64,000 bases of DNA from a virus: IMG/VR virus record IMGVR_UViG_3300025318_000007, positions 1 to 64,000 of that record; one strand, given 5' to 3'. The notes under the pieces were generated by a model, which was given only the letters and a program-made list of their open reading frames with translations, made no database searches and was not told where the DNA came from. Made by a program: the position numbers and the translations under genes. Shown piece after piece: positions 17,389 to 47,321 of the stretch. Numbering within the stretch: position 1 is the first letter of the stretch; every line of letters begins with the position of its first letter.

Positions 17389-17801
17389 GGAAACACTAAA
17401 TAGTTCGTTGTATCAATCCTTCTTCCAATTAACACCTTATCGGGAGGTACATTGTGCTTTGCATAGACGAAAGCATAGTTAACAAAGCCGTACCACTGAA
17501 GTAGATCGTAATAGGTTTCACCCGTGTCGTACAAACTATCAATGATAAAGTCATGAGCACTTAACCTTGAACGAGCATGATCTACTGGTACCATGCGCAC
17601 GTTTTTAATTTTGAGCTCATATGCAAGCACAGCTGCGGGAGTCAATCCTCCTCGGGGTATGCAGTAAAAGTTCGAGTAATTAACATCAAAGAGGTGATGT
17701 TTAGCAATCTTATTTGCTAATCTGAGACAGTCTGACTGAAACTCATCCCAGTTGATAACTTGATTAGTCGAAGGTAATTTGTGAGAACTTCTTGATGACA
17801 T
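17367..17801 (-). CDS. gpt: xanthine-guanine phosphoribosyltransferase-like (type I PRTase)
   Basis: INWDEF, IPRGGLTPAAVLAYELKIKNVRMV and PRPP motif FIIDSLYDTGETY parallel E. coli Gpt ([41 protein letters not shown]). Confidence 0.65.
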   Translation of the reverse strand: MSSRSSHKLPSTNQVINWDEFQSDCLRLANKIAKHHLFDVNYSNFYCIPRGGLTPAAVLAYELKIKNVRMVPVDHARSRLSAHDFIIDSLYDTGETYYDLLQWYGFVNYAFVYAKHNVPPDKVLIGRRIDTTNYLVFPWESGED

Positions 17802-26882: not shown

Positions 26883-27442
26883 TAAGCTTCCTCAAACAAC
26901 AAGTCCCAAGTTTCTTCATCACGGACCCAGTCATAATCTGAAGGCAGATCCACAATCTGTCCTTCAATTATCGGGTAGTAACGAACAACTACTTGATCAT
27001 CGAGAGATGGAGTTGCTCCAGTAAACAATACATGTCCCTGAGTTGCCCCAGCTGGATTTGAAATCGATACGCCAGCAATGACAGTATCTTCAGGACTTTC
27101 AACTACCGCAGCTGCCGCATCGTCATCAATCCTAATTCTGCGGGATGTGAGGAAGAGTCTAGTAGTACCTGGAGCAGTAATGACCTCTTTACGATTAACG
27201 ATCGAATACAAATCAATAAAAGTATCCTGCTGATACTCTTCACGTAGATCTTCAAAAAGATCTTGCGAAAGACCCCTAATGCGAATACTGTACTTCTCGT
27301 AGTTCTTCTGACTGTAGAGCGTGCCGTCCTGAGACCGCTGAAACGATAAAGCCTTTTTAGCACTTGCTGTAAATGCGCTAGCAGGTAGTCTCCGAGTAAC
27401 CGTTATTTCAGTACCCCCAATGATCAGCGTTGGAATACTCAT
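26882..27442 (-). CDS. tail protein immediately downstream of tape measure (distal tail protein candidate)
   Basis: module position. Confidence 0.5.
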   Translation of the reverse strand: MSIPTLIIGGTEITVTRRLPASAFTASAKKALSFQRSQDGTLYSQKNYEKYSIRIRGLSQDLFEDLREEYQQDTFIDLYSIVNRKEVITAPGTTRLFLTSRRIRIDDDAAAAVVESPEDTVIAGVSISNPAGATQGHVLFTGATPSLDDQVVVRYYPIIEGQIVDLPSDYDWVRDEETWDLLFEEA

Positions 27443-32280: not shown

Positions 32281-32832
32281 TTACTGTTTCTGTCGGACGA
32301 TTCGGAAGTACCGCTGACCGACAGCAAGAGCTGAACTGTCCCACGCGACGGTAGCTTCGAGAGCCTTGATACCGAAGGGGAACGAATGCAATTCATCCTG
32401 CTGTAGATTCAACGACCACTCGCCGTTCGGCTGGCAGCGCCAGAAGTAGAACGAAACCGTATGGCCGGTCGGCAACGTGTGCACGATTCGAACCGCGATT
32501 TCATCCGTATCCGGATCCCCACCGAAATCAAACGTGTCTTCACTGGCGGACGACGTAGTGATACCTGCACCTAGCGCGATGGCCAGGTTAAGCAAATTCC
32601 ACTCGAGAGTCTGAACCGACAGCTCGACCGTTTCTCCGATAACGAACTGCTTAATCAACGTGCGAGGCGAGCCTTGAAAAACTTCAAGGAACTCACGATT
32701 AACACTGAGTTCCATGCCGTCTTCATGGATAGCACCGACATCGATCGAAGGAGTCGTTCCAGCCGGACCCACGTACATAACCGCGGGTCCTAAGCTGATG
32801 TTTCCGACATTATAATTCGAAGTGTTAGCCAA
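32281..32832 (-). CDS. major tail tube protein
   Basis: 183 aa, position upstream of chaperone-TMP; TTG start with AGGTGG RBS; strong promoter upstream. Confidence 0.6.
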   Translation of the reverse strand: MANTSNYNVGNISLGPAVMYVGPAGTTPSIDVGAIHEDGMELSVNREFLEVFQGSPRTLIKQFVIGETVELSVQTLEWNLLNLAIALGAGITTSSASEDTFDFGGDPDTDEIAVRIVHTLPTGHTVSFYFWRCQPNGEWSLNLQQDELHSFPFGIKALEATVAWDSSALAVGQRYFRIVRQKQ

Positions 32833-32867: not shown

Positions 32868-32896
32868 ATTGTAATATTATTTATGGCTTATGTCAA
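32868..32896 (-). promoter_or_regulatory. consensus sigma70-like promoter TTGACA-17-TACAAT
   Basis: reverse complement of 32868-32896 reads TTGACATAAGCCATAAATAATATTACAAT. Confidence 0.45.
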
Positions 32897-33129
32897 TCTT
32901 TAATATCATGTTCTCGCAATAGTTGCTGCAACGGAACGTTTGTCTGAAAACTATTCTCAGTTTGACACAGCCTACAAATAATTCGAATAGTGCCTTGCAC
33001 AAAGCAAGTTAACGTCTTATACTTGATCGCCATAGTGCCGCCCGGATGAAGTATGCCGATCATTGAGTTACACTGGCGACACTTCCACGCTTTAAGATCT
33101 TTTGATCCTTTTAGAGGTTCTAGCGCCAT
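32893..33129 (-). CDS. zinc-ribbon protein
   Basis: CRQC...CRLC pairs. Confidence 0.45.
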   Translation of the reverse strand: MALEPLKGSKDLKAWKCRQCNSMIGILHPGGTMAIKYKTLTCFVQGTIRIICRLCQTENSFQTNVPLQQLLREHDIKD

Positions 33130-33539
33130 TAGTCTGCCTGTAACCGATGTACTTGAAATCGTTGTCCAGTGGAATACAATCGGGGTTCCTCTTCATATTT
33201 TTCTGTTGGAGTACCAATCGCTCGAATACGAATTAAAGATTCGATGGACTGCTTATTTACACGATCGTAAATCGCAGTAAGAATAGTATGAGCCTCATCG
33301 TGACTGATATTCGAGTAAGCCCAAATGTTTAGAGGAAACTGCTGCAGGATGCCCCAGTGACGCTCAACTCCACTATCCGCCCAAAAACACGCTTTCGGCC
33401 AATCACTCGAACCCGATATATTGTATAGAGTCGCTAATTGAGCACCAATAAACCGCTGTCCAATCAAATTAGTGACACTGGATGAAGCTAAAACATAAGT
33501 TCGAAGTTTAGTTTTAAAATCATTGAAGGACAGTGACAT
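33129..33539 (-). CDS. putative neck/tail terminator protein
   Basis: position. Confidence 0.4.
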   Translation of the reverse strand: MSLSFNDFKTKLRTYVLASSSVTNLIGQRFIGAQLATLYNISGSSDWPKACFWADSGVERHWGILQQFPLNIWAYSNISHDEAHTILTAIYDRVNKQSIESLIRIRAIGTPTEKYEEEPRLYSTGQRFQVHRLQAD

Positions 33540-33557: not shown

Positions 33558-33992
33558 TTAAGCCTCATCGACACCCCGACGCAGTGCTCGTTCCATAATT
33601 TCAGTTAATCGAGCTCTAACTTCATTGTAACTGCCAGTGATAAAGTCACGAGCAATCATTTTTGACGTACCATAAAGTACATGCACGACTTCGGGAGCTT
33701 GGCTTTCATCAACGCCAACATCGATTGCATACTGATTAATCTGGACTTGGCCGACAGCGTTGACTAATCTACCCGATTGAACGTGAACTTGATAATCTGG
33801 GCTGTGGAGGGACTGGGGAGCTCGTCGAGCATATGGATAACCCAACCGAGCTAATTCGTCTGCGGTGTGGTCATCTAAGGAAACATTCTCGACTATTTTC
33901 TCTTCAAGAGCATTAGCACATTCCTTTAGAGCTTCTGTCAGTCGCTTCGTGACAGAAAATCGCAATCCTTGGAGCGGCTGCCGTCTAGCCAT
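33558..33992 (-). CDS. putative head-tail joining protein
   Basis: position. Confidence 0.4.
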   Translation of the reverse strand: MARRQPLQGLRFSVTKRLTEALKECANALEEKIVENVSLDDHTADELARLGYPYARRAPQSLHSPDYQVHVQSGRLVNAVGQVQINQYAIDVGVDESQAPEVVHVLYGTSKMIARDFITGSYNEVRARLTEIMERALRRGVDEA

Positions 33993-34003: not shown

Positions 34004-36421
34004 TCACATCTTTTGCTGTTGCTCCAGAGCAGCTAGCTTAATCTTCTCAATCCTCTCTTCCATACTATCGATATGTTCCTTCAACCATTTTGCGGTTTCC
34101 GGGTGGGTATGAAAGTATTGTAAGCAATGACCAGGAGCCCCTGGAATATTGTGAGGACGAATCTTATTTAAAGTCGAGGCATACTGACTAAGTAACTTGC
34201 CATTAGGATGATGTGGTCCGAAAAGCTTACGAGCACGATCCATCCAAAAGAAAGCTTTTTCAATAAAAGTCTTACCCATCTCCATTGCGGCAAGTGGAAA
34301 CTTCGGAGCTAAAGTACAGGCGATCTTAATGAGTCGAAGAGCATCTTCTTGGCAGTTGTCTTCCAACAAATGGATCGCTAAATTGTAATAAGCACGTCCA
34401 TCCATCGGATTATCTTTCATCTGCTTGATATTGATCTCCATGTAACGCTGCATTTTCGTGAACGACTGTTCTGGAGTCATCGTAAGATATCCCAGATGAT
34501 TAATGCCAATTGGACTCTGACTAACTCTCCAATGAGACTGCGCGGAGTAGTTATCGACCGTTTCGTGCAGGTATCCCCAATATGCAACTTTACCGTCGTT
34601 GGTAAACATCCGAATGGTGTCAGTGTTAATCACTTCCCCATTTTTCTGATAGTTGTGTATGGGCACCACCCATGCATCAATGTCGTCAGCGTCGAGCATT
34701 CTACGAATACCGGCCCAACTGGTCACTTCTTCATCGAGATCCAATTGCAGAATAAACTTCTTAGTGCAATGATTGAGCAGAGCATTTCTTGTAGCACTGA
34801 AGTCGTCGGTCATTGTAACTGGTACAATCTTACACCCGTACAATTCAGCAAGAAATTTATCATCTTCACTCATCCCGTTATCACCGAGCACTATTTCATC
34901 GGCCATCGCAGAAGCGACATCAAGCCACTTCGAAAGATAAGTACCGCCATTCTTGAGAGGCGTGTAAATACTAAATGTACTATCTTCTTTCCAAGACAGT
35001 AAATGGAGATACTTTTCACTAGTGAGATAATCCCACCCAGCTTTCGGCATTCCAGGAAGCTTTACATCGAGATTCTTGTAAAAGTTCTTACGGTATTCGC
35101 GTTCTTCGGACTTAGCAAATCCACCATTTAGAATACGAACGCTGCAATCGCGAATACACTCCAATGGTATTGAGGGTCCAAAACCGAACTGTTGAGTTAA
35201 CTTTCCAGGAAGGGTTATCTCTCTGCCTGGAATAACTTTAACGAGTTGAACGCTGCCGGACCGTCCCCATGGCTCATCAAATCGCCAACCCTTACTTGAC
35301 CACTTAAAATAAGTTTGCAGCCGATACCCAAACACCAGTGGATTAACTGGATTGAGAAGTCGAGTCTTAAATTCCGACATCTTTGCTTCAACAATCTCAT
35401 CTTGATCCAAAAAGAGCACCCACAAGTGACCCTCTTTCTCAGCTCGTTTATAAAGTTCATTCAAATCTCTTTTTTGATCAAACGAACGAGAATATTTTAC
35501 GTAGTGAGTTATCTTACTAGCCAAACTTGCTCGGTGTTCCTTCAGATAGGGCATCACCTTAACTTTAGAGTTGTCATCTAAGATGTAAACAGCATCTGCA
35601 AACTCTAACGAACGCTGAATCGAATCAGCCAACAACTCCATCGAGTAATCTGAATTTACTTTTACTCGATAACATACTGCAAGGGTGGGCTTGGCATCCT
35701 TATTGTAAAATGACTTGATATATGAAAGTGGGCCGACATCTTTCTCTGTCAAATCGTAATAGACAATCGTATTGGGAGCAATCACCGGCAAGTACCCCAA
35801 CTGAAGAACCTTGGCAGTGAAAACTTCAATTGCGGCAAATCCAATATCGAAAGTTTCATCAAAACCACCGACTGCATCGAAGACGTGCTTGCCCATAAAC
35901 AGACAAGCCTTACCTAATCCGAGAGCCGGTTGCCAAGCTTTCCGTTCTTGAGTATTATTGCGGTCGATATTTGCTTGAACATCATCGAGATTATCTTGGG
36001 TAATAACAGTGTCAGCAACCGCTTTACTGATGAGGGGTGCACAAATTCCGATCTTACCAACTTTGTAATCTCTCTCAAAAGTATCGTACCCGTAAGAGAG
36101 CTTCACAAGAAGATTAAGAGTAACAATTGCCTTATCACTCAAGAAGAGAACTTGCTGGCCGTTAGCACTTCGGCCGCCGCGATTGTAAAGAGCAACTGTG
36201 GTACTTACGCCGTCAACTGCAATAACATCCCAACGAGCTACCTTTTCTGCGCGGCAGTAGTGGTCAGTGACGGCACCGACTGGATAACTAACCGTGGGAT
36301 GCACGACGATGATTTCTGTGCGGCTGGGATCGATAGCCCTCACCAAACGTGAAATGCATCGAGTAAAAATTTCAAGGCCATGCTCAGCTGCGATGACAAT
36401 AGTCCATTTAATCTCGTTCAT
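34004..36421 (-). CDS. multidomain glycosyltransferase (three GT-A/GT2-like modules + C-terminal helical repeats)
   Basis: N-terminal IVIAAEHGLEIFTRCISRL; DxD-like motifs YILDDNS, FLDQDEI, LDLDEEV. Confidence 0.7.
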   Translation of the reverse strand: MNEIKWTIVIAAEHGLEIFTRCISRLVRAIDPSRTEIIVVHPTVSYPVGAVTDHYCRAEKVARWDVIAVDGVSTTVALYNRGGRSANGQQVLFLSDKAIVTLNLLVKLSYGYDTFERDYKVGKIGICAPLISKAVADTVITQDNLDDVQANIDRNNTQERKAWQPALGLGKACLFMGKHVFDAVGGFDETFDIGFAAIEVFTAKVLQLGYLPVIAPNTIVYYDLTEKDVGPLSYIKSFYNKDAKPTLAVCYRVKVNSDYSMELLADSIQRSLEFADAVYILDDNSKVKVMPYLKEHRASLASKITHYVKYSRSFDQKRDLNELYKRAEKEGHLWVLFLDQDEIVEAKMSEFKTRLLNPVNPLVFGYRLQTYFKWSSKGWRFDEPWGRSGSVQLVKVIPGREITLPGKLTQQFGFGPSIPLECIRDCSVRILNGGFAKSEEREYRKNFYKNLDVKLPGMPKAGWDYLTSEKYLHLLSWKEDSTFSIYTPLKNGGTYLSKWLDVASAMADEIVLGDNGMSEDDKFLAELYGCKIVPVTMTDDFSATRNALLNHCTKKFILQLDLDEEVTSWAGIRRMLDADDIDAWVVPIHNYQKNGEVINTDTIRMFTNDGKVAYWGYLHETVDNYSAQSHWRVSQSPIGINHLGYLTMTPEQSFTKMQRYMEINIKQMKDNPMDGRAYYNLAIHLLEDNCQEDALRLIKIACTLAPKFPLAAMEMGKTFIEKAFFWMDRARKLFGPHHPNGKLLSQYASTLNKIRPHNIPGAPGHCLQYFHTHPETAKWLKEHIDSMEERIEKIKLAALEQQQKM

Positions 36422-36430
36422 AATGTACCC

Positions 36431-37579
36431 CTACAGATATCTAAGAAGGATGTCTGCAATTAGTTTTCCGGCGTTTCCATCTCCAAAGCTCAAACTAGGT
36501 TTAAACTCCGGTGGCTTATCTATGAATGATACTATCTTTTTACCCAAAGTGTCAAAGTCATACCCAACGAGCTCTACACCCGGAAGCTCAAGAGCTTCGG
36601 GACGTTCAGTTTCAGACCTCATTACCAACGTGGGTACTCCCAGTACAGCCGCTTCTTCTAACACACCACCACTATCGGTTACCGCCAATTGACATGCTTT
36701 TAGTAGCCAAACGAAATCGGAGTAGTTGAGTGGTCCATATAATCGAACATTTTGCACACCACCCAATTCATTTGTAACTAAACTTTTGATCGCTGGATTT
36801 GGATGCACCGGCCACACAAAAATATAATCTTCATGCTCTTGCGCCAATTGTTTAACAGTATTACAGAGCTTCAACATTGGTTCTCCCCAAGACTCTCTCC
36901 GATGGCACGTAATAAGAATAACTTCTCGAAGAGGTATCATGGGAAAAACATTATACCCACCCGGTAGCGTAGTATTTAAAGTATGATTAACGGCATCAAC
37001 TACAGTGTTACCCGTAATCCAAATCTTAGTATTTGAAACACCCTCACGACATAGATTAAAGGATGCCTGTGTGGTTGGTGCGAAGTGAAGAGTAGCTAAT
37101 CGGGATATCAACCTACGATTCATCTCTTCAGGAAACGGAGACTCGAATCGAGAAGTTCTTAATCCAGCCTCAACATGAGCAACTGGTATTTGCTCATAAA
37201 ACGCTGCGAGGGAAGAACAAAAGGCGGTGGTGGTATCGCCATGAACTAGAACAATGTCTGGATTGAAAAGCTTAAGCTGCTCGGCGATCTTAGTGACAAG
37301 AAGTCCAGTGAGAGTACTAAGATATGAATCGCTTCTTACAAGAGAGATCTCAAAATCAAACTTCAATTTAAAGAGTTCAAGAATAGGCTGGACAACATGA
37401 ATTTCGTGTTGTCCAGTGAAACCAAAATGGTTCTCTATCTTGGCTTCATTCGATAGTTCTTGAAGAGCGGCAACGACCGGAGCCATCTTTATTACCTCCG
37501 GTCGAGTACCGACGATGGTTAAAACCTTTTTCATGTCTGGGGTCGATCCGGTAGAAGCAGCTCCAAAAGAGTTGTCCAC
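36431..37579 (-). CDS. wecB: UDP-N-acetylglucosamine 2-epimerase (non-hydrolysing, WecB/MnaA family)
   Basis: IVGTRPEVIKMAPV, LVHGDTTT, AHVEAGLRT, FPEEMNRR motifs. Confidence 0.85.
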   Translation of the reverse strand: MDNSFGAASTGSTPDMKKVLTIVGTRPEVIKMAPVVAALQELSNEAKIENHFGFTGQHEIHVVQPILELFKLKFDFEISLVRSDSYLSTLTGLLVTKIAEQLKLFNPDIVLVHGDTTTAFCSSLAAFYEQIPVAHVEAGLRTSRFESPFPEEMNRRLISRLATLHFAPTTQASFNLCREGVSNTKIWITGNTVVDAVNHTLNTTLPGGYNVFPMIPLREVILITCHRRESWGEPMLKLCNTVKQLAQEHEDYIFVWPVHPNPAIKSLVTNELGGVQNVRLYGPLNYSDFVWLLKACQLAVTDSGGVLEEAAVLGVPTLVMRSETERPEALELPGVELVGYDFDTLGKKIVSFIDKPPEFKPSLSFGDGNAGKLIADILLRYL

Positions 37580-38487
37580 TCAGCTGTGTAGGTCTTCTTA
37601 GCATAAATCAGATAGTCACCGCAAAAGTCTTTTAGAGCCGAAGAGGTACACTGAATAGAGCCAGTATCAAAAGCCCGTCGAGGTCCGATTTCAATATCAA
37701 GAGGACCGATTACTTCTCTGAAGTAACCCACCAATTGTAATGTAGTGGTCACTTCACCGGTACCCAAAAAGATCGGACTCTTGTACGCAGGCCACCCCTT
37801 TCCACCCATGCTCTTCCTGATTTCATTGAGAATGAAATCTGCGGTGTTAACTACATTGACGTAATCTCGAGATGGAGTGCCGTCTACGGTATCGTAATCA
37901 TTTCCATTGATGATAAAAGGTACTTTCTTTAGATAGCAATCCAACATCGTAGGTCCGACATGAACTTCTTTCTTTCGGTATTCAGTTAATCCTTTGTAAC
38001 CGCCGGCCTGATTACAAAACATGAAAGGAATAACTTGAGTTACTCCATCCTGGCTAAGTAGCCAGTCCATTCCGTCTTGCTTACTTTTAACGTACGGCGC
38101 ATCTTTGAGCTCCGGATCGAGGGACAATGAAGTCATCGGGAACACGAATGCGGGAACATTGTGATCGCATGCATCCTTGTAGAGAGTTCGTGTCATGTTG
38201 ATGTTCAAATCTACAAGTTCTTCGTAGGGCCGGCTCAAACTTCCCGTACCTGCGGCGAGATGAACCACCGCATCGCAAGGATGATTTGCAAGAAGATCTG
38301 AAATTCCCTCACGACAATCCTTTTTAACAAGTGTCAAATCCGGTTGCCACTTCTTAATTCGATTCAGTCCACGATCTCCATTATCAACGGCAACTACGCA
38401 ATGTCCTTTATCAAGTGCTCGTTGAGTTAGAACCGAACCAATAAAACCCCTTGATCCCGTTACTAATATTCTCATGGTTTTCTCCAT
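37531..38487 (-). CDS. NAD-dependent nucleotide-sugar epimerase/dehydratase (SDR)
   Basis: MRILVTGSRGFIGS Rossmann motif, YxxxK-type region. Confidence 0.75.
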   Translation of the reverse strand: MEKTMRILVTGSRGFIGSVLTQRALDKGHCVVAVDNGDRGLNRIKKWQPDLTLVKKDCREGISDLLANHPCDAVVHLAAGTGSLSRPYEELVDLNINMTRTLYKDACDHNVPAFVFPMTSLSLDPELKDAPYVKSKQDGMDWLLSQDGVTQVIPFMFCNQAGGYKGLTEYRKKEVHVGPTMLDCYLKKVPFIINGNDYDTVDGTPSRDYVNVVNTADFILNEIRKSMGGKGWPAYKSPIFLGTGEVTTTLQLVGYFREVIGPLDIEIGPRRAFDTGSIQCTSSALKDFCGDYLIYAKKTYTAEWTTLLELLLPDRPQT

Positions 38488-39758
38488 CCGGGTTCACCAA
38501 CAATACGATAATCAGCCCCTTCCACTTTAAAAACACTTCGGTAAGTAGACCAGGCACCGTGTGCATCAAGAATGAGCTGTCTCTTATTCCACTTCCATCT
38601 ATTGGGTATTACTTTGTAAGCATCATGTTCCGTTGCCAGGAGAACAACTTCTCGATGATCAAACATCACAACTGAACCTGACGGAACACCCGTAGCTTTC
38701 TCTAACTCTATTGGATCCCACAGAGGATCGTGCAATATAACATCCCAATCTTCATCAAACAGCATACGAGCGATATCTACACCAGGTGAACCACCAATAT
38801 CTTTGAAATTAGGCCGGTATCCAGCACCAAGAACAACAACTCGCTTTGTTCCCTTAAGACCGTTTAAATGCCGACGAATTTCTCGACATACGTATTCACG
38901 CTGCGTAGCTTCCTGTATTATCGCAGCATTGGCTATTGGAAGTAGTCCTTTCGTAGCCTGTAGTAAATACTTTGTTCCAATGGGAACACACCTACCTCCA
39001 GTACCAAACCCGATATGATACTGCGGGAGTCTCCAATGCGTACCAGCTAACCGAAGTGCTTCTCTGACGTTCTTTTGCGGTAGAACACATGCTAATTGAT
39101 GAGCAAACATGACTGGAATATGCAGGAGAGCATTTTCAAGCGCTTTACAAATCTCAGCAGTCTCTCGATCTGTCTTGTGAATCAAATCACGTCGAGTAAC
39201 TGTTGAAATAATTTCGAATGCCATTGCACTTGATTCCCAGTTAACACCCCCGATGATACGTTCAAGATTTGAAACATTCTTTTCAGAGTCTGCAAACCAA
39301 TCTCGACGGGGACAAACCGCCAAGTAACAATAGTTTGGACGCTCTTTAAGAACACCGTCAATCATTCCAGGAGCAAGGGTTGATTCAACTAAGATAACTC
39401 CCAGTCGAGGAATCGTTTTAAACAACTCACGAAGAACGCCGACAACAATTTTCCCATATGGTTGATTAGCTCTTTCCGTGGGAACTGCGATGGTGTGATA
39501 ATGAAGTCGCCGTACGAGTTCAAAGTTTGTGGTAGCTTGAATGCGTCCTTCGAAAACTAGATCACGAATTTGACTATCGAGATATCCCAAAAATTCACCC
39601 GATCGTGGAAACCCCGACATTATACCCGCAACCACGGCTGGATCGGGGTCATAGATAACAATCCTACCCCATGCATCTTTATTCGAAGCATAGTGAACAG
39701 CGGCTGTTAAACCGACGTAACCCCCGCCATGAATAACCATCGTATCAGTAATCAACAT
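38472..39758 (-). CDS. UDP-sugar 6-dehydrogenase family (UDP-ManNAc dehydrogenase candidate, WecC-like)
   Basis: GGGYVGL Rossmann; catalytic-Cys motif GFGTGGRCVPIGTKYL. Confidence 0.7.
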   Translation of the reverse strand: MLITDTMVIHGGGYVGLTAAVHYASNKDAWGRIVIYDPDPAVVAGIMSGFPRSGEFLGYLDSQIRDLVFEGRIQATTNFELVRRLHYHTIAVPTERANQPYGKIVVGVLRELFKTIPRLGVILVESTLAPGMIDGVLKERPNYCYLAVCPRRDWFADSEKNVSNLERIIGGVNWESSAMAFEIISTVTRRDLIHKTDRETAEICKALENALLHIPVMFAHQLACVLPQKNVREALRLAGTHWRLPQYHIGFGTGGRCVPIGTKYLLQATKGLLPIANAAIIQEATQREYVCREIRRHLNGLKGTKRVVVLGAGYRPNFKDIGGSPGVDIARMLFDEDWDVILHDPLWDPIELEKATGVPSGSVVMFDHREVVLLATEHDAYKVIPNRWKWNKRQLILDAHGAWSTYRSVFKVEGADYRIVGEPGWRKP

Positions 39759-40866
39759 GTGAAAGAACTCCCCAAGCAGTTCGGTATTTGCGATGTGCAG
39801 CTTTTGATTGATCTTCTACTTCAATCCATTTTACTAATTTCATATCAGTCAAACTACTCAAAAACTCCCGAGTACGTTCAAGAGTCGGAAAGTTTGTGTC
39901 TTGATTGCAAATAACAAAATACTTAGCTCCACGAAGTAAACTAGCACTCGCCCATCCATGCACAGTACCAAAGATTACTTCTTCCTTTTTCGGCCAGAAT
40001 TCCGTCTTCACCGGTCTCTGCAAGAGGATGCTTGAAAGATCCTCAGTTAACCATCGATAAGGATTCGTTTCAAAACTACCTTTCAGCCATGGCCAAGCAG
40101 GATCTGCGTAAACAAGACTCCCATTGATAAGCTCATCCGTAAATCCGTCTTTAAGAGTAGCAAGAGCATCGCATCCATAAACTTCATGCCCAGGACCGAC
40201 CACTTCACAGTTAGAAGTCGGTTTCTTTTCAAGACGGCTAGCATACAAATACGTTGTCCATGCCGTTCGCATCAAAAAGTTATGAATATATTCCGGAGAA
40301 ACTTCAGAACTGAGGACTCCGAAAGGAGTCATTGGACACCAGCCTAATCCCCGGAATGTAAAAGTACTCCTTATTGCTTTTCCAACACAATAAAGTAAAA
40401 ACGGATGATAACCATAACGAAGACACAAAGCATCGATATACTGACGAGTACTTAAATTGACAGGAGTGTTTGTCACGCCGCCAAAATACCCAGTTAAAAC
40501 CCGATGATACTTAGGTTGAGTTTCATGCCACAATATTTTTAGCCAATCTGAAGGAGCCGCATGATACTTCAAGACAGCAAACATCGCGCAATAAGAATAA
40601 AAACACCTATCGTTTGCTCCAATCAATTTCCCCTTTAAAGCCTGATCATATACAAATCGACCACCACCAGCAGTAACATCAATAAAACTAGAACACTCAT
40701 TTACATAATTCAAAAATTCCTGCGGGAAGATGTTTAAAGCCCGAGTCCCATAATAACGAGCAGTGAACTTCTCCGAAGTCTTCTTGGGGAGCTTCTTTTG
40801 GAAGTCTTCAAAAGTCATTTCTTTAAAGCTCCGGCTATGCGACTCAAGCACATCGCCCAATCCCAA
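39745..40866 (-). CDS. Dam-like (D12 class) N6-adenine DNA methyltransferase
   Basis: ARYYGTRALNIFPQEF, FIDVTAGGGRF (motif I), GANDRCFYSY, C-terminal ADPAWPW (DPPY variant). Confidence 0.55.
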   Translation of the reverse strand: MGLGDVLESHSRSFKEMTFEDFQKKLPKKTSEKFTARYYGTRALNIFPQEFLNYVNECSSFIDVTAGGGRFVYDQALKGKLIGANDRCFYSYCAMFAVLKYHAAPSDWLKILWHETQPKYHRVLTGYFGGVTNTPVNLSTRQYIDALCLRYGYHPFLLYCVGKAIRSTFTFRGLGWCPMTPFGVLSSEVSPEYIHNFLMRTAWTTYLYASRLEKKPTSNCEVVGPGHEVYGCDALATLKDGFTDELINGSLVYADPAWPWLKGSFETNPYRWLTEDLSSILLQRPVKTEFWPKKEEVIFGTVHGWASASLLRGAKYFVICNQDTNFPTLERTREFLSSLTDMKLVKWIEVEDQSKAAHRKYRTAWGVLSHVDY

Positions 40867-41852
40867 TTTTCATATGCCCAAGCTTGACCTGCATCTCCTA
40901 AGCGCTTTCGTGCTTCTGGATGTTCCAAATAATAATCGACCTTCTCTTTTGTTTCAGCTGGAGACGATGAAAACTCAAGATGAGTTCCCTCTACCAATCC
41001 CTCGAGATCTGTTCCAACTGTTCGATGCCAGATAACAGGTATGCCAGATGCTAAAGCTCTTCCAAGCTTGATTCCAAAACCACCGTAACGCCAATTCCAT
41101 GTTATACCCACATAGAGCTCATGCGATGCATATACGTGGGGATACTCAGCGGGGTGATAAAAACCTCGAAAGCTATGTTGCAACTGGGATACGCCACCCC
41201 AGCCGTGCACAGGATCAGCAGAACCGTAAATTGAAACGGAGTAATCCTTAAGAGGTAACGCCATAGTTTCTACGCTAATTCTCTTAGAGTCACCCGCGCA
41301 CTTTTCAAAACAAGCATAATGGGCTGAACCATCAGTTACAATCCTACGACCACTGTACTCGGGTTTAGCAATTAACTTATCAGACCACCGAGCACACCCA
41401 GAAGGAAGATAAATAACATTGTTATCAGGACAAGCTGCCTTGTACGCCAATATATCTTGATAGTTATCAACTGCGATATTGTGGAATCTGCGGGCAGCGT
41501 TGATAGCTTCTTGGATTGTCGGTCCTTGCTCAGAGCACCAAGTTATGGTGGGCACTCTATTTTCGATCGCATGTATTTCAGAAAGACATTCATCCCCGAT
41601 CCAATAAGGATAGCGAAAAACTATCAAATCAGCTGTTTCATCCTTAAGTTTTAAAAGAAGAGAGTGTTGAGCTTCTTTACCGTAAAATTTACCAGCAGAT
41701 GGACCTTCATGCTTTCCTTCTTCCATGGATAAAACATAGGGTGCAACCTGGTAGAGAACCAATTCAATACCTGATTGCCTGCAGGACTCGACAATATCGA
41801 ATTCGCACTCACTTGGATGGGCAACCCAGATGATCTTCATTCTACCACCCAC
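40815..41852 (-). CDS. glycosyltransferase family 1-like
   Basis: C-terminal GT-B motif region GRALASGIPVIWHRTVG...EG. Confidence 0.5.
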   Translation of the reverse strand: MGGRMKIIWVAHPSECEFDIVESCRQSGIELVLYQVAPYVLSMEEGKHEGPSAGKFYGKEAQHSLLLKLKDETADLIVFRYPYWIGDECLSEIHAIENRVPTITWCSEQGPTIQEAINAARRFHNIAVDNYQDILAYKAACPDNNVIYLPSGCARWSDKLIAKPEYSGRRIVTDGSAHYACFEKCAGDSKRISVETMALPLKDYSVSIYGSADPVHGWGGVSQLQHSFRGFYHPAEYPHVYASHELYVGITWNWRYGGFGIKLGRALASGIPVIWHRTVGTDLEGLVEGTHLEFSSSPAETKEKVDYYLEHPEARKRLGDAGQAWAYENWDWAMCLSRIAGALKK

Positions 41853-42382
41853 TGCGGTGCGAGAAATCCTTCCTCGACCTTTATTTGAAACGGATTAGCT
41901 CGAAAGTAAATATGCATACCGGAGACTTGAATGTCTTGATCAGTGCCGTTACCTATCACAATCGAAATATGATCTGTAAATGGAATTTTATGAGTGAACG
42001 CCAGCGTTGCCTGTGCCTTTGGATCAGTAAGTTCTCCGTTCCAAGAAGGACAGTAATTTGGCATTCCAATTCCCGACGGACCCACTAATCCCATCTCACT
42101 CAAACACCCGCCGTTATTTAAAACAACAAAAGGAAAAGCATCAACCTGATACCCTATCCAAGTAGCATATGCTCCGCGAAAACCTATCGCAGTAACTTCA
42201 CCTGCAAGTCGTCCGTTAGCGGGAGAAATCCGAACAATCTTCGTTAACAGAATTCGATGGGCAGGTTCTTTCCAATCCCACGTGTTTTTTGATACTGTAA
42301 AGGGGTCAAACTTAAAGACGCAAAGGGGAATCCACATTACAAAATATTTCCTTCCACTTAGCTGCAGTGGTGTGGCTAGCAT
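41837..42382 (-). CDS. hypothetical protein
   Basis: ORF track. Confidence 0.4.
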   Translation of the reverse strand: MLATPLQLSGRKYFVMWIPLCVFKFDPFTVSKNTWDWKEPAHRILLTKIVRISPANGRLAGEVTAIGFRGAYATWIGYQVDAFPFVVLNNGGCLSEMGLVGPSGIGMPNYCPSWNGELTDPKAQATLAFTHKIPFTDHISIVIGNGTDQDIQVSGMHIYFRANPFQIKVEEGFLAPQWVVE

Positions 42383-42929
42383 TCCACAAAACTGAAAGTT
42401 GTACTTGTACTCTTTTTAAGATAGTCAAATTCAATTCGTTAGTGCAAAATAAACCGGTGTGTGGAAGTACGCCATCAAAAATAATACCATTAACATCCCA
42501 AGTAATACATTCACGATATTCTTTACGTTCAAAATCGTGAATCAGTACTATCGTGTTTTGAGCTACCTTTGAAAACACTGCTTTAATAGTTGCTGCTCGG
42601 TGATGAAGTTCGGTAGAATCATCTATCAAGATAAGATCATACCCAGTCAAATCCATACCGAGTACAATCTCAGACATTAACTGTCCAGGTACATATTTTA
42701 GAGTGTACGGGGGTTGAAGTTCTCCAAAAGCCTGCTTGCATGTTTTAAACCACTCTTCAGGTCCATTTTCGATCGTCGTAAATTCTTCAATCTCTGAAAA
42801 AATCTGACGATCAATAAAGATCGGAGTTGAAATTAATCCAGTGCCCAATTCCAAAACACGTTTCGGCTTAAATAAAAGCGCAACCATCACCAAAATAGGA
42901 ATATGAGATCGCGATGAAACTTCAGGCAT
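42312..42929 (-). CDS. class I SAM-dependent methyltransferase-like
   Basis: VLELGTGLIST motif I-like. Confidence 0.45.
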   Translation of the reverse strand: MPEVSSRSHIPILVMVALLFKPKRVLELGTGLISTPIFIDRQIFSEIEEFTTIENGPEEWFKTCKQAFGELQPPYTLKYVPGQLMSEIVLGMDLTGYDLILIDDSTELHHRAATIKAVFSKVAQNTIVLIHDFERKEYRECITWDVNGIIFDGVLPHTGLFCTNELNLTILKRVQVQLSVLWNASHTTAAKWKEIFCNVDSPLRL

Positions 42930-43656
42930 TATTTTTTACACCTTTATAAGTTCGGAAGAAATCATTGTTGTACACCGCTGTTGAAAGAACTTCGAAGCCG
43001 GCGTCTTCAAGAAGCTTTCTTCCCTCTTGTTCGGTGTATGGAATCGCATATGGAGTTCCAAATCCATCTACCAACCAACAAAAAGCTTCCTCTTTACTTT
43101 TGATCTGAGGATGAGCTTTCATTAGTGGAGTAATCTGCGGGGCGAAATGCATCCCGAGAATCTCGCTGTAGAGCATAACGTAGCAAAAACCTCCCGGTTT
43201 CAGAACGCGGTAGAACTCTTTTACGACTTCGGGGGCGTCGGGGATATGATGCACTACACCATGCGAGTTAACAAGATCAACACATTCGTCCTTCAACTCG
43301 AGTGGATAACTTTCTTTGAGATGCAAAAAGATTGCATTTTCGCAAAGACCAAAGTAGTCAAGATTTTGTCGAGCTTGCGCAAGATTCTCTTTAACAATAT
43401 CGCAAAGAATAACGGAGTTACCTCTCCGAAGATATTCATAGGCATCGGATCCTGCGCCGGAGCCGTACTCCAATACAAGCTTCTCCTTATACAGATCGAA
43501 CTCTTGAATTTTTGTGTGCTCCGGATAGACAGCTGTCTTGTTCAAAACGTAGTTGCCAGCTAACTTCCAAGATTCACGAGCTTGATCCATCAAATCCTTT
43601 TCGGACATGCAATACTCCTTTCGCACAATCCTCGCAACCCACAGAACACTCTTCAT
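42922..43656 (-). CDS. class I SAM-dependent methyltransferase
   Basis: VLEYGSGAGSD motif I, VLKPGGFCYV post-II. Confidence 0.65.
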   Translation of the reverse strand: MKSVLWVARIVRKEYCMSEKDLMDQARESWKLAGNYVLNKTAVYPEHTKIQEFDLYKEKLVLEYGSGAGSDAYEYLRRGNSVILCDIVKENLAQARQNLDYFGLCENAIFLHLKESYPLELKDECVDLVNSHGVVHHIPDAPEVVKEFYRVLKPGGFCYVMLYSEILGMHFAPQITPLMKAHPQIKSKEEAFCWLVDGFGTPYAIPYTEQEGRKLLEDAGFEVLSTAVYNNDFFRTYKGVKNNA

Positions 43657-44293
43657 GTTTTTGAGCTTCTGTTAACTCATAAAAATAACGATCACTGTTT
43701 TCTGTTGCCCACTTTGTTCCATTCTCACAATTCCAAACGTGACTGTTCGTTTTAAAATCTGCTTTTTGTGGAAACGGTTTCGTTATAAAGCTGGCCTCGT
43801 ACCAACGCATGCGATTGTTCGGCTGAGCTGTAAAACATCCATTGTCGAGTTTGACAATGTGAGCTCTCTTAAAACCACCTTCTCCGGGATCTTCCGCGTA
43901 CGGATCACCGTACCATGAAAGGGTAAACATGTACACACCTGGGTACCATTTTCGGTCTTTGAGAAGCACCTCGCAGCGTAAACTTCGGATAGCACCGTAC
44001 TCGTGGGCCTCCACGCAATAGCTAAAGTTGTTCCATAACTCAAGATGATCAAGAGGGAGATTAGGAGCATCCTCTTTATGAACGAGAGCGGATATAGGAA
44101 GTCTTGCAAACATAGCACCGAAGTCAGTGAGTACATCAAAACCAATGGCGCGACCAGAAACAGAATCAACTGCGAAAACGAGTACAGGAATAAATTCTCC
44201 GTGATGACTCTGTAAATCATAAGCATACTCTGCGCGGAGGAGACAGTAAAACTGTGGTATATCTGCGGCAAACCCCATTACGCTTTCAGCCAA
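43574..44293 (-). CDS. hypothetical protein (Cys/His-rich C-terminus)
   Basis: ORF track; preferred over overlapping 43783..44271 frame. Confidence 0.45.
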   Translation of the reverse strand: MAESVMGFAADIPQFYCLLRAEYAYDLQSHHGEFIPVLVFAVDSVSGRAIGFDVLTDFGAMFARLPISALVHKEDAPNLPLDHLELWNNFSYCVEAHEYGAIRSLRCEVLLKDRKWYPGVYMFTLSWYGDPYAEDPGEGGFKRAHIVKLDNGCFTAQPNNRMRWYEASFITKPFPQKADFKTNSHVWNCENGTKWATENSDRYFYELTEAQKHEECSVGCEDCAKGVLHVRKGFDGSSS

Positions 44294-45951
44294 AGCATTT
44301 CTTGTTCGTGTTTTGCAATCAACTGATCAGTTAATGCTCGGTCGCGGGCATAAACTGGACTGTTAGCTGATGACCCATCAAGCGTATTAATATTCCAAAC
44401 CCCATCCGGTATCAGTCCAATCTGTTTAGAATGAACTTTCTTGATCAACTCCTCCTCTGGATTAATTGCAATCGACGGAGGTGATGCTGGTTCGGTTTTA
44501 ACCTGACCCCTGAAAACCCAATTAACCAACTTAGAAATCTTGTAATTGAGTTCAGCATCTTCCATATTCTGGAGTCTGGGATCGCAGTAACACCCCCAAA
44601 TCTTCTTAACGTCTTTGAGAACACGGCAATCAACAGCAACATTGGCCCAACTAGCCGCAAACCCACCTGGCATAGCTAAAAACTCTTTTGCTTTTGCCGG
44701 TGGAATTGGAAGATTACCAATATTCATGAACTTACCGTTGTGGTGATCTGTGAAAGGTCCATAAATAGCACGATGACCTTCGTCAAAGGCTAGCTTATCA
44801 AGCTCCAACTTCTTCGGCATCAACCAATCATCAGACCCCAACCTAACCCAATACTGCGCGGTGTTGACCGCGATATCGCACCCCACTTCGTTCATCGCAA
44901 CACCGCCACGACGTTCCAAGTACTTAGCGTAGAAAATACGAGGATCTTTTTCAACGTACTCGTTTACGACTTGCTCGGTATCGTCTGACGACCCGTCGTC
45001 TAATACGAAACAAATCCACTTGTCATACGTTTGAGCAAGAACAGAATCGAGTGCTCGTCCGAGAGCATATCCGCGGTTGTGTGATGGAATGATGATGCAA
45101 AAGGTTTCTTTGAGTTCCTGAAGGTTTTTAAGCTCATAGATTCTTTTGAGCTGTTCATCACTGAAAGGAGAAGGCTCGGATCCCGTGATGGCGTCAATTC
45201 CTTCAGGTAACAAATCTGACGCCACTGACCGATATTTAGCATCTTTAAGCTGGATGTGCCGGTCAACTCCGCCGAGTCCCCCGTAGTACTGAATGGCTTT
45301 CCAACGCAAATTGACTCCGTAGTTTCCATAATGAATAACCTCGTAAGGTGCTTTTCCGACTTTACCGGATTGCAGTGCGCCATGAATCTGAGTGGGGAAT
45401 TGAGCGTGATGAGTCCCATTAATTACATCGAACATCAACTCTGGCGTGTACCGCCAGAGTTTGATAAACCAGCCATCATCAAAGCCGGAATCAGTTCTAG
45501 CGTACGAAGCATTTCGCCACAGTTGTGTATAGTGCATCGACCACGCCTGCAAATGAGCACTGCTCATCAATTGTTGCTTGCAAAAATCACGAAGTTCTAC
45601 AGTACCCCTGCGGTCAAGAACTTCATCGCCATCCATCCAGAAAATAAACTCCCAAGGACCTTTACGGTGCACAAGCTTAAGAAGTTCTTGTTTCCATTTC
45701 AACTCATCTCTGAAACTTTGTTGTTCCGGCTGAACTCGGAGAATGTGGTCTTCGGGGAGCTGCTCTTTGAGGTATTCGTAAGTACCGTCGTAAGATGCAT
45801 CATCGCAAACAAAAATTTCATCGCAGTACTGACTCATATTATTCAGTACTCGATAAATGTTTCCGCCGCGCATCACCTCGTTACGAACTTTAAGGAAGCC
45901 AGCAATTAGCTTTTCACTCATACCACATCCTTTCAGACTAATGAGAAACAA
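44278..45951 (-). CDS. two-module GT2 glycosyltransferase
   Basis: IFVCDDASYDGT, FWMDGDE; second module IIIPSHNRG...FVLDDGSSDDT, LGSDDW. Confidence 0.75.
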   Translation of the reverse strand: MFLISLKGCGMSEKLIAGFLKVRNEVMRGGNIYRVLNNMSQYCDEIFVCDDASYDGTYEYLKEQLPEDHILRVQPEQQSFRDELKWKQELLKLVHRKGPWEFIFWMDGDEVLDRRGTVELRDFCKQQLMSSAHLQAWSMHYTQLWRNASYARTDSGFDDGWFIKLWRYTPELMFDVINGTHHAQFPTQIHGALQSGKVGKAPYEVIHYGNYGVNLRWKAIQYYGGLGGVDRHIQLKDAKYRSVASDLLPEGIDAITGSEPSPFSDEQLKRIYELKNLQELKETFCIIIPSHNRGYALGRALDSVLAQTYDKWICFVLDDGSSDDTEQVVNEYVEKDPRIFYAKYLERRGGVAMNEVGCDIAVNTAQYWVRLGSDDWLMPKKLELDKLAFDEGHRAIYGPFTDHHNGKFMNIGNLPIPPAKAKEFLAMPGGFAASWANVAVDCRVLKDVKKIWGCYCDPRLQNMEDAELNYKISKLVNWVFRGQVKTEPASPPSIAINPEEELIKKVHSKQIGLIPDGVWNINTLDGSSANSPVYARDRALTDQLIAKHEQEMLWLKA

Positions 45952-45986
45952 ACATTAAACCATTTTACCAGTTAGAGTGGTGTATG

Positions 45987-46322
45987 TCAATGTTTAAAAT
46001 ATTCGAGGTAAATTACATAAGCGAGGGTTCGATTTTTAAACCGGAGAGGATTTGCGGCTACAACCCGATACTGCACGGAGTCGATTTCTAAGACTTGACG
46101 GTCGGTTACAACCTTCTCTGAAAAGGCTACGAAGTCTCCAATACGGACATGGCCTGGATCATAAAACTTAAAAGCTCGAGGTGGATTAGGACCGAAGTAA
46201 ATGGGTATGTTCTTAACAAGAGATAGAGTCTCTATCGGAGCACCTGTCGCAGAAGAAGAGGTAGCGTTCACGATATTGTATTGATTCACTCTCTTATTAA
46301 AGAAAGCACCCAACAATCCCAT
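45987..46322 (-). CDS. hypothetical protein (head-completion region)
   Basis: ORF track. Confidence 0.4.
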   Translation of the reverse strand: MGLLGAFFNKRVNQYNIVNATSSSATGAPIETLSLVKNIPIYFGPNPPRAFKFYDPGHVRIGDFVAFSEKVVTDRQVLEIDSVQYRVVAANPLRFKNRTLAYVIYLEYFKH

Positions 46323-47321
46323 TTACGCAATCTCCGCCTTACGAAATAATTTGAGAGCGTCCCCGATGGTATCATCAAAAAGTTTCCGTTCAAGTGCAAA
46401 AGACAAATCACTCAAACGAATACTTGAAATACCTTCAGAGGTTGAAAGATTAACAAGCTTGCTGGTGAGAGCGAGAGCTGCAGTTCTAACCGGTTCAGGA
46501 ATAGTCTGCATCCCAGCTATGTAAGAAATCGCGAGTAAAATACCGGAATACTCAAAATCAAACCCGGCAACATCTGTGAGTTTGAGAATACCGTTCTGTG
46601 CATCCAAGCGATAGTAGAACGTAGTTGGCGAATTAGCGACCGTTTCGACTTCCACCCCAACACTGCGGGGGATAATTTGAGTAGTTGGAGTGATGCCGAC
46701 TATCTGTTGAATCGGATAGTGTTTCAGCTTCACTCGAGTGGTGCTCTGAATCTCAATTACCTCGTCATATTGCTTAAGACCAAACCGCCGCATGCAGTAA
46801 CCTTCAACGAGTTCCATCGCACACTGCAACATCTGCTTATAGAATTTATCCCGAGTGTGGTCAGTATCGTCAGCTTCGATGTAATTTCGATATTCACGAA
46901 CACTAAGCCAAAATGGCTCTTGAGTATAATCTATGATTTCAAATGGCCACGGTTCACTAAAACTAACAATTGAAGCGCCACCTGTTATTCCACTTGCGAC
47001 TGCAAACCAGTGACCAACTGTCAATCCTGGCTCGACGAAAAGATCATAAGTATATCGACCAACAGTAACTCCGGGCGTAAGAGCTACGTTCGTAAGATAA
47101 ATATTCTTTAAAGGCGTATAGACATTGGCAATTGGACTTGCCATATCCACCCTATCACCATCGTCGTTATAAAAATCGAATTCTAAGGTGTAGGTAAAGC
47201 CTGGTCGATATTGATTGATCATTCTTTTACTTTTGCCACCAATAATCACCCTGAGGGGTTTGTCCCAGGGGATCCAAGATCTTTTCCACTGTTCGCGCCA
47301 AATCTGGACCGACATCGGCAA
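46323..47321 (-). CDS. putative head-tail connector/structural protein
   Basis: position. Confidence 0.4.
   Translation of the reverse strand: MPMSVQIWREQWKRSWIPWDKPLRVIIGGKSKRMINQYRPGFTYTLEFDFYNDDGDRVDMASPIANVYTPLKNIYLTNVALTPGVTVGRYTYDLFVEPGLTVGHWFAVASGITGGASIVSFSEPWPFEIIDYTQEPFWLSVREYRNYIEADDTDHTRDKFYKQMLQCAMELVEGYCMRRFGLKQYDEVIEIQSTTRVKLKHYPIQQIVGITPTTQIIPRSVGVEVETVANSPTTFYYRLDAQNGILKLTDVAGFDFEYSGILLAISYIAGMQTIPEPVRTAALALTSKLVNLSTSEGISSIRLSDLSFALERKLFDDTIGDALKLFRKAEIA

Follow-up and report, generated by a model that had tools for sequence, protein, structure and literature searches.

To our knowledge, glycosylation of the phage particle has been proven experimentally only in a few mycobacteriophages, where it blunts antibody recognition. 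In chlorovirus PBCV-1, cytoplasmic multi-domain enzymes with glycosyltransferase (GT) domains, in part combined with methyltransferase (MTase) domains (A064R, A111/114R), equip the major capsid protein (MCP) with a methylated glycan independently of the host. SunS is the peptide S-glycosyltransferase of SPbeta. GmaR of Listeria carries an N-terminal GT domain that transfers GlcNAc to flagellin, followed by a tetratricopeptide repeat (TPR) domain (PMC9638930), and Cluster O mycobacteriophages encode an O-MTase, two GTs and a GlcNAc-transferase inside their structural operon (PMC4351075). Here we analyzed a stretch of 64,000 nucleotides (the window hereafter; IMG/VR record IMGVR_UViG_3300025318_000007, positions 1 to 64,000) of a phage known solely from metagenomes, in which an island of glycan-related genes (34004-45951, minus strand) interrupts the structural operon between head and tail genes. 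We are inclined to read this island as an entirely cytoplasmic system, expressed late, by which the phage would glycosylate proteins of its own particle, with an 805-amino-acid (aa) GT (GT805; 34004..36421, minus strand; recognized by Pfam, PDB and family-profile searches) as its anchor enzyme.

The closest known kind of system is that of mycobacteriophages of Cluster O (Corndog gp35-38) and F1 (Che8-type), which share with this phage the presence of GT and MTase genes in the structural operon. Their enzymes are cytoplasmic and were not found in virions, and the island is likened to their cassettes by the kinds of genes and by their place within the structural operon. The Corndog cassette is located at portal-protease, whereas the island is located at adaptor-Neck1, and Corndog encodes four small single-domain enzymes and no nucleotide-sugar genes, whereas this phage encodes a GT of ~800 aa with three modules and TPRs as well as its own WecB, nucleotide-sugar dehydrogenase (DH) and epimerase. 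The phage lineage is also unrelated (SU10-type MCP, 44% GC). To judge by sequence, the system differs from the mycobacteriophage kind in enzyme family, fusion, sugar synthesis, position, lineage and breadth of conservation. GmaR and SunS/ThuS are likewise cytoplasmic, consist of a GT-A domain followed by TPR-type repeats and act on a protein or peptide acceptor, the likeness here being homology to the third module and tail of GT805; they are however single-module enzymes that add one sugar, whereas GT805 has two extra upstream GT-A modules and lacks the antirepressor domain of GmaR. Bacterial flagellin glycosylation islands (such as locus L017, described below) combine GT2-TPR, other GT, MTase and nucleotide-sugar genes, placed beside a gene for a polymerising surface protein, as here, and show variable content around a conserved core, as is the case across the related phages, one of which (L085) even carries a Maf/MptE-like gene. 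Those islands are cellular and flagellar, whereas the polymerising proteins encoded next to this island are those of capsid and tail. The logic of PBCV-1 is the same in concept, but PBCV-1 is a eukaryotic giant virus with N-linked glycans whose MTases are fused to GTs, whereas the MTases of this phage are separate genes. The GTs of Gtr/TarP-type conversion systems are phage GT2 enzymes too, and the second module of GT557, another island enzyme, weakly resembles TarP; but conversion systems lie in lysogeny or moron regions of temperate phages and Gtr systems use membrane proteins, neither of which was seen here. A Gtr-type set (GtrA flippase, bactoprenol GT GtrB and serotype-specific membrane GT) was not found either, the GT2 core giving only weak partial matches to GtrB-like phrogs.

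The island consists of 11 co-directional minus-strand open reading frames (ORFs) which abut or overlap by a few bases. A preliminary description of the locus had counted ten consecutive minus-strand genes, correctly as to strand and contiguity, but its gene list omitted a 234-aa PurM/ferredoxin-family gene and a 166-aa ORFan. Its placement of the island between neck and head-completion genes is borne out by the flanks: upstream lie a head-tail adaptor gene (46323-47321, minus strand; phrog_442) and a 111-aa head-completion-like ORF (45987-46322, minus strand), together forming the conserved upstream boundary, and downstream, 11 nt from GT805, lies its conserved neighbour, the Neck1/tail-completion gene (33558-33992, minus strand; phrog_5). 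The genes for MCP, protease and portal are found further upstream, and those for tail tube and tape measure further downstream. The GC content of the island is that of its flanks. We checked the island for pseudogenisation and found its ORFs intact in six independent metagenome assemblies, with mostly synonymous substitutions (10 synonymous against 1 non-synonymous among population variants of GT557); they are not pseudogenes. No membrane segment was detected in any island protein (no 19-residue window reaching a Kyte-Doolittle value of 1.6), and the island contains no flippase, polymerase, priming GT or ABC exporter. Immediately upstream of GT557, in the one intergenic gap of notable size, lies a promoter-like site (TTGACA-17-TAAAAT with an upstream TG; 45962-45990, minus strand; 11 of 12 in a consensus scan), which we take as a lead only, being a consensus match in a scan whose total site count was not above chance. 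Expression may start from the late operon or from this site.

GT805 is laid out as three GT-A-like modules followed by a TPR-like helical tail. We analyzed its motifs in an alignment with three homologues, and then in an alignment with 52 family members (53 sequences). Module 2 (aa ~245-470) is of the Glyco_tranf_2_4 type and carries the motifs LDDNS (D282, D283) and D-x-D-E (D339, D341, E342), of which D341 and E342 are near-invariant across the 53 sequences. Module 3 (aa ~480-700) carries ADE..GD, LDLDE and HET, with D561, D563, E564, H619 and E620 invariant in 53/53 sequences. The preliminary description had recognized a three-module GT2 protein from three motifs; the three GT-A-like modules stand, but YILDDNS (aa 279-285) and FLDQDEI (aa 337-343), which it had assigned to separate modules, both fall within module 2 and are, going by the alignment, the nucleotide-binding and metal-binding motifs of that single module. 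Module 1 (aa ~1-240) is a degenerate GT2: a profile built from four sequences matched 6p61 at 0.005 and SpsA at 0.08 (GT2 fold), and the family profile matched chondroitin synthase, GalT1, TarP and SpsA at 1e-14 to 1e-29. In this phage, module 1 has lost the UDP-binding Asp, the second DxD Asp and the ED.D motif conserved in the family, the family consensus EIIVV-D-NGS-D reading EIIVVHPTVSY, LNDD reading LSDK and GG-ED-ND reading GFAAIEV. The catalytic motifs are hence kept in modules 2 and 3 and not in module 1, which is most likely catalytically dead in this phage and may have a structural role or bind glycan. The island plausibly holds about five catalytic GT modules rather than the at least six claimed earlier, the acids of module 1 being lost. 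An hhalign comparison of module 1 with module 2 gave no signal, and a PDB profile search with module 2 gave zero matches. We also predicted the structure of the whole of GT805 with AlphaFold (AF2) from a 4-sequence alignment; the model was poor (pLDDT 47) and did not enter the fold search.

The best solved structures for module 3, searched as a single sequence against the PDB, were GmaR (1.1e-10) and SunS (1e-6), and the 53-sequence family profile matched GmaR at 1.2e-42, SunS at 2.3e-29 and 7msk at 3e-26. In the tail, profile positions 671-761 matched the TPR regions of OGT and SPINDLY as well as consensus TPR proteins at E<=1e-12, with TPR/OGT at 1e-20 or better; the SunS alignment reached into this region, and module 3 together with the TPR tail is also homologous to the peptide glycosyltransferases SunS/ThuS. 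With GT805 alone as query, Pfam yielded no TPR at E<=0.01. The sole NCBIfam match of GT805 was the SunS model (1.5e-7, 30.6 bits against an equivalog cut-off of 350), a score that makes it a relative, not an equivalog, of SunS. The nearest cellular relatives of module 3 retrieved in a word-indexed search (P0004-P0009) are encoded directly downstream of a flagellin gene, in an island (L017) with GT2-TPR, GT41, MTase and nucleotidyltransferase genes. Because of the GmaR/SunS and TPR matches and of these flagellin-linked cellular relatives, we place GT805 on homology in a clade in which the enzymes characterised so far act in the cytoplasm as protein or peptide glycosyltransferases.

The word-indexed search had returned only 3 full-length relatives of GT805, and the extreme rarity this suggested was overturned by an exhaustive HMMER search, which brought the family to 439 cluster representatives at E<=1e-30. 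Among the top 150, about 100 were collinear and full-length (~750-850 aa). To search contigs, we used a 14-sequence subset as query, the 53-sequence alignment being too divergent. Informative contigs comprised L008, L019-L022 and L024, L080-L087, and five distant members at 21-27% identity, the latter from a sample of six taken down the list, one of which gave a contig too short to be informative. L019-L027 and L080-L087 derive from groundwater and soil samples. Throughout these informative contigs, about 17 in number, the anchor GT was located between head-completion/connector genes and Neck1/tail genes, down to 21-23% identity. The metagenome contigs L008 and L019-L027 had WecB and a short-chain dehydrogenase/reductase (SDR) gene upstream of the GT and a Neck1 homologue (28-57%) immediately downstream, wherever these were visible; SDR and WecB accessory genes were found in L020, L025 and L027, and the Neck1 homologue directly followed the GT in L008, L019-L022, L024 and L081-L087. 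In L083-L087 the GT was 23-24% identical and was followed by Neck1 and tail tube. All five informative distant contigs (5/5) showed MCP and/or an HCP-type connector, an ORF of ~200 aa, the GT and small neck/tail ORFs, with HCP/connector genes preceding the GT in L089, L091, L093 and L094 and the tape measure also visible in L093 and L094. A tblastn search of GT805 and protein P0060 against 50,697 deposited phage records gave no homologue covering at least 80%, with no mycobacteriophage among the organisms listed, and none of 185,579 species genomes showed a GT805 relative with the two patterns used.

The genes around the anchor GT varied from contig to contig. In L080 (IMG/VR), protease, MCP (63%), adaptor and the 111-aa homologue were followed directly by the GT, with neither the ribonucleotide reductase (RNR) gene nor any other island gene, and L089 and L091 likewise had zero accessory genes. 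A 103-kb contig (L081/L082) had a nearly complete cassette, comprising a homologue of the island MTase MT244, a DXD GT, a GDP-mannose-dehydratase-like SDR, a homologue of the island GT-B, a homologue of the MTase MT205, another MTase, DH, SDR (80%), WecB and GT805; downstream lay Neck1, two small ORFs, tail tube (64%) and tape measure, and the cassette did not include the Dam-like, PurM-like and ORFan genes of the island. Other genes preceded the GT elsewhere: MCP, a TylF/rhamnosyl-O-MTase-like MTase, a polysaccharide pyruvyl transferase and a GT4 in L084 (95-kb contig; 4946-7408), and a Maf/MptE-like protein (4393-5145; E=3e-8, just under the cut-off), a family we take to be that of flagellin nonulosonic-acid transferases, together with a Methyltransf_24 enzyme in L085. 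In L092, a sulfatase-family protein is encoded beside the GT (5753-6742). On gene order and homology, the anchor GT thus keeps its place at the head-tail junction throughout a broad clade of uncultivated phages, while the genes around it vary. In L088 (IMGVR_UViG_3300017605_000706, 97 kb), a GT557 homologue (43%) occurred with MT244, DH, SDR and WecB, whereas the 10 kb to each side contained neither a GT805 homologue nor any structural homologue that could be recognised; the sugar-supply and extension genes of this sub-cassette therefore move as a module independent of the anchor GT. Since the set recurs in L082 (seven genes) and L088 (five genes), we regard the island as a coherent set of seven or eight glycan genes plus three passengers, an assignment made from gene content.

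Three genes would supply activated sugars, and for each the assignment made in the preliminary description held. WecB (36431..37534, minus strand), a predicted non-hydrolysing UDP-GlcNAc 2-epimerase yielding UDP-ManNAc, passed the equivalog cut-off of TIGR00236 (361 bits against 210.15, full length, from residue 18 of the long ORF) and matched Pfam Epimerase_2 at 2e-91; we set its start at the ATG which overlaps the SDR stop codon (ATGA). The SDR (37531..38475, minus strand) is a GalE-like NAD-dependent sugar epimerase (Pfam Epimerase, 5e-19) with intact GxxGxxG and YxxxK motifs, whose best NCBIfam match was galE (1e-22, below cut-off) and whose relatives in related contigs are 62-80% identical. 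The nucleotide-sugar 6-dehydrogenase (DH; 38472..39758, minus strand) has three UDPG_MGDP_dh domains and the catalytic Cys motif GGRC, and can be called an NDP-sugar dehydrogenase although it falls below every curated cut-off, scoring 171 against 189.8 for the subfamily model TIGR03026. Its best specific matches were UDP-ManNAc DH models (8e-26 and 2e-21), none of whose equivalog cut-offs was passed (NF040825, 90.8 against 750; NF008286, 76.4 against 459); the substrate is assigned from the neighbouring WecB only, which makes UDP-ManNAcA the most likely product. The nearest bacterial WecB proteins were at most 44% identical and scattered over many phyla, Planctomycetota being frequent. We also looked for WecB precedents in phage records and discarded those found: "Aphanizomenon phage Yong-DA" (ON073792.1, L078) is plasmid-like, with ParA, ParB, a replication protein and polysaccharide export genes, "Microcystis phage MaAM05" (MW495066.1, L079) is chromosome-like, with uvrA, topA, psbU and mtnP, and the remaining matches were mostly unannotated contigs or had bacterial titles or gene names, and were taken as host and not counted.

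The other GTs and the small MTases of the island also largely agree with the earlier assignments. The GT1-like protein is a CgeB-like GT-B of the Glyco_trans_1_2 family (40815..41840, minus strand; PF13524 at 1e-13), with a 33% identical homologue in the L082 cassette. The two-module GT2 protein is GT557 (44278..45921, minus strand; 547-557 aa), both modules of which were matched by Pfam (3e-9 and 1e-23): an N-terminal Glyco_tranf_2_4 module with CDDAS and MDGDE, and a C-terminal Glycos_transf_2 module with LDDGS and SDD; its PDB matches were chondroitin synthase, GalT1, SpsA and TarP. As for the two class I S-adenosylmethionine (SAM) MTases, the assignment is clear for MT244 (42922..43608, minus strand; Methyltransf_11 type, PF08241 at 7e-18), with homologues 46-51% identical in the L082 and L088 cassettes, and weak in this phage for MT205 (42312..42929, minus strand; 205 aa), which has an ELGTG motif I and matched Methyltransf_24 at 0.003, below the cut-off. 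MT205 has a 33% identical homologue in the L082 cassette, and its positional analogues in L084 and L085 matched Methyltransf_24 at 2e-11 and 4e-10 with secondary TylF and rhamnosyl-O-MTase matches; we annotate it as a putative sugar O-MTase.

Three island genes are probably unrelated passengers, a reading based on their absence from related cassettes and on the occurrence of homologues in unrelated contexts, so that the island is not the single functional unit it had been taken for. The Dam-like amino-MTase (39745..40818, minus strand) had zero Pfam matches of its own, but the Dam-like label draws on a distant homologue (P0015) with PF02086, on the motifs FIDVTAGGG (motif I) and DPAWPW (within VYADPAWPW), invariant in the homologue alignment, and on a class I MTase fold; a Foldseek search returned nothing at E<=0.001. 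Its homologues adjoin recombination and dUTPase genes or sit inside a QueC/QueD/FolE cluster, and it is probably a DNA MTase outside the glycan pathway. One such homologue (33%; L015, ERZ650225 NODE_568, 3360-4355) is flanked by QueC and GTP cyclohydrolase I, QueD being close by, the context being a 7-deazaguanine DNA-modification gene cluster of another phage, and in L013 the Dam-like domain is fused to DUF6884. The PurM/ferredoxin-labelled gene (43574..44278, minus strand; 234 aa), a probable passenger, belongs to phrog_3704 (8e-63), a widespread aquatic-phage family with members in 114 phage records, chiefly those of cyanophages and pelagiphages (hosts Synechococcus, Prochlorococcus, Pelagibacter, Flavobacterium and Aphanizomenon). 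Its best match (47.5%) is in Aphanizomenon phage CL131, where the gene adjoins the tape measure gene with no GTs nearby, and searches against Pfam, NCBIfam and the PDB gave zero matches; we did not retain the "ferredoxin" label, since depositor names are contradictory (PurM, ferredoxin, hypothetical) and no profile matched. The 166-aa ORFan (41837..42337, minus strand) matched only itself among 5.8 billion proteins and had zero matches in Pfam, PHROG and the PDB.

From these genes a pathway can be proposed in which host UDP-GlcNAc would be taken and converted by WecB to UDP-ManNAc, DH would probably oxidise a UDP-sugar to its uronic acid, most likely UDP-ManNAcA, and the GalE-like SDR would give a 4-epimer. 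The TPR tail of GT805 would then grip a virion surface protein, the leading candidates being MCP and tail tube, while the GmaR/SunS-like module 3 would place the first sugar on a side chain and module 2 would lengthen the chain; GT557, with its two modules, and the GT-B would add further sugars, which the two small SAM MTases would O-methylate. The pathway would be cytoplasmic, since every enzyme is soluble. In this scheme the acceptor, the order of steps, the sugars beyond UDP-ManNAc and the biological pay-off are all inferred from the genes, and the benefit might lie in a shielded surface or in changed adhesion or stability of the particle. The central idea of the preliminary description, that the phage runs a glycan pathway of its own linked to the virion module, is strengthened by the protein-GT homology, the conserved position and the lack of membrane segments. 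More tentatively, we suggest that a large siphovirus clade with SU10-type capsids universally glycosylates its own particles, with the three-module, TPR-bearing GT of ~800 aa at the head-tail junction as dedicated enzyme, and that swaps of accessory genes (nucleotide-sugar enzymes, GTs, O-methyl-, pyruvyl- and possibly nonulosonate-transferases) diversify the glycan.

Several points weigh against glycosylation of the particle. The case is one of genomics only: neither a glycan nor a glycoprotein or acceptor site has been seen. The structural operon also hosts RNR, HNH and AAA ATPase genes and so tolerates unrelated cargo. Homology to GmaR and SunS indicates a clade with protein-acting members, not protein action by every member, and the AF2 model of GT805 (pLDDT 47) was too poor for judging the proposed TPR-substrate interaction. 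Soluble GTs can, besides, modify lipid-linked intermediates on the inner side of the host membrane.

This last point leads to the main rival, which we consider unlikely: remodelling of the host envelope, in which the soluble GTs and UDP-ManNAc(A) would act on host lipid-linked intermediates (O-antigen, enterobacterial common antigen (ECA)-like, capsule or teichoic-acid-like), with receptor masking, a superinfection block or the avoidance of progeny adsorption to debris as benefit. Surface polymers such as ECA, teichoic acid linkage units and capsules are classically built from UDP-ManNAc and UDP-ManNAcA, the second module of GT557 is similar to the polysaccharide GTs chondroitin synthase, SpsA and TarP, and the GT557-MT244-DH-SDR-WecB set of L088 has no GT805 homologue within 10 kb. 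The many GT and epimerase genes of large cyanophages have also been read as cell-surface modification (PMC12801897). Such remodelling is however hard to reconcile with an island that has no priming GT, flippase, polymerase, ABC exporter or membrane protein, in a phage that looks lytic from its genes (UvsX, a gp32-like single-stranded DNA-binding protein (SSB) and RNR, with no integrase among the ORFs scanned, a part of those in the window), and an anchor of protein-GT type fixed to the neck genes over deep divergence would be unexpected in a conversion moron. Virion decoration and host-surface remodelling cannot be separated decisively by computation, and a protein acceptor is the option favoured by the evidence. 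That acceptor could in turn belong to the host: a GmaR-like enzyme might modify host flagellin, pilin or another surface protein, for example blocking competitors that depend on flagella (flagellotropic phages) or pili, and the closest characterised homologue, GmaR, does act on flagellin, with the nearest cellular relatives encoded beside a flagellin gene; but the strict linkage to head and neck genes is hard to explain in this way, and we hold a host target to be decidedly improbable.

The head-tail junction could also simply be a permissive hot-spot collecting unrelated auxiliary or defence-evasion genes with no common product, as might be expected from the RNR, HNH and AAA ATPase genes that also interrupt the structural operon, from L080, which lacks RNR and all accessory island genes, from the promoter-like site at the upstream island edge, and from the Dam-like MTase, the PurM-like gene and the ORFan, which have unrelated contexts or no relatives. 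We find this improbable for the island as a whole, given that seven of its eleven genes make up a coherent set for activating, transferring and methylating sugars, that this set recurs in the diverged phages L082 and L088, and that the anchor GT is kept in place in about 17 contigs. To DNA hypermodification, in which the GTs would glycosylate hydroxymethylated bases with the Dam-like MTase in the same pathway, we give very little credence. Phage GT-A and GT-B enzymes, sometimes with epimerases, do build DNA glycans (bioRxiv 10.1101/2023.12.21.572611), and a DNA-type MTase lies inside the island. As criterion we used a GT located beside a 5-methylpyrimidine dioxygenase, or beside a ThyA-like hydroxymethylase and a C5-MTase (bioRxiv 10.1101/2023.12.21.572611); among ORFs of at least 140 aa, the 64-kb window contained no 5mYOX/TET, C5-MTase or ThyA-type hydroxymethylase, the only candidate being ThyX, 24 kb away. 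The anchor GT, moreover, has a TPR domain and groups with protein GTs, and the Dam-like gene is absent from related cassettes.

All sizeable ORFs of the window are on the minus strand, and no tRNA genes were found in it. The phage is known from metagenome assemblies that carry identical genes and from one IMG/VR fragment. A megablast search of the island against the 50,697 deposited phage records gave zero matches, MCP and GT805 gave marginal partial matches only against GenBank phages, and single-sequence scans of IMG/VR returned zero relatives with GT805 or the head-tail adaptor, only a fragment of the same phage with the terminase, and with MCP only one short contig (L001; a weak partial match at 31% identity). 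Using profile searches, we assigned the gp32-like SSB (62063-63028), UvsX (60969-62039), the large terminase (58364-59824), the portal (56409-57860), a protease/scaffold (50586-51707), the SU10-type MCP (49573-50538), the tail tube (32281-32832) and the tape measure (27442-31542); two small ORFs (32893-33539) lie between Neck1 and tail tube. The structural operon is heavily interspersed with non-structural genes, including an HNH endonuclease between terminase and portal (57862-58440), a 746-aa ORF without any match (53902-56142) and a 583-aa AAA-type ATPase between the portal region and the protease (51748-53499). Directly after the MCP gene lies that of a 95-aa FmdB-like zinc-ribbon protein (49186-49473), followed by a 530-aa RNR, large-subunit-like (47575-49167; Ribonuc_red_lgC, 6e-54), located between MCP and head-tail adaptor, which is short for an RNR and was matched by the profile in three pieces; as the relative L080, with an MCP 63% identical, has no gene there, RNR is an insertion into the head module. 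The MCP contains 18% Ser+Thr, with a dense S/T patch at residues ~237-265 (TSTAIPSTINITSGGTVSSLTGGTSTA); we considered this patch as a candidate O-glycosylation region and did not use it as evidence, having no control set of GT-less relatives. Further downstream are a GH108 endolysin with a PG_binding_3 domain (19750-20340), a combination which we take to be typical of phages of Gram-negative hosts, a D5-like/metallophosphatase protein (18330-19715), a ClpP-like protease (17764-18330) and a nucleotide-pool cluster at 8560-10814 comprising a NUDIX hydrolase (8560-9129), ThyX (9728-10423) and a MazZ-like protein (N-terminal domain of dATP/dGTP diphosphohydrolase; 10377-10814), all on the minus strand. 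MazZ-like enzymes are found with 2-aminoadenine (Z-base) genomes; the window ORFs that were scanned included no PurZ-like gene.

Compared with the known systems, the one described here belongs to a broad environmental clade, is absent at full length from the 50,697 deposited phage records and makes its own activated sugars. Because the conserved neighbours of the anchor GT (MCP, connector, Neck1 and tail tube) provide a short list of candidate acceptors, particle glycosylation is directly testable. The GT805 family is a compact, soluble, multi-module type of protein GT with a possible use in glyco-engineering. Glycosylation throughout the clade would amount to a viral counterpart of the flagellin glycosylation islands and would mean that glycan coats occur widely among environmental phages and are not confined to mycobacteriophages. 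Should the acceptor be a capsid or tail protein, phages would commonly carry surface glycans, and these would diversify, with a bearing on particle stability, matrix adhesion, host recognition and the immune visibility of therapeutic phages.

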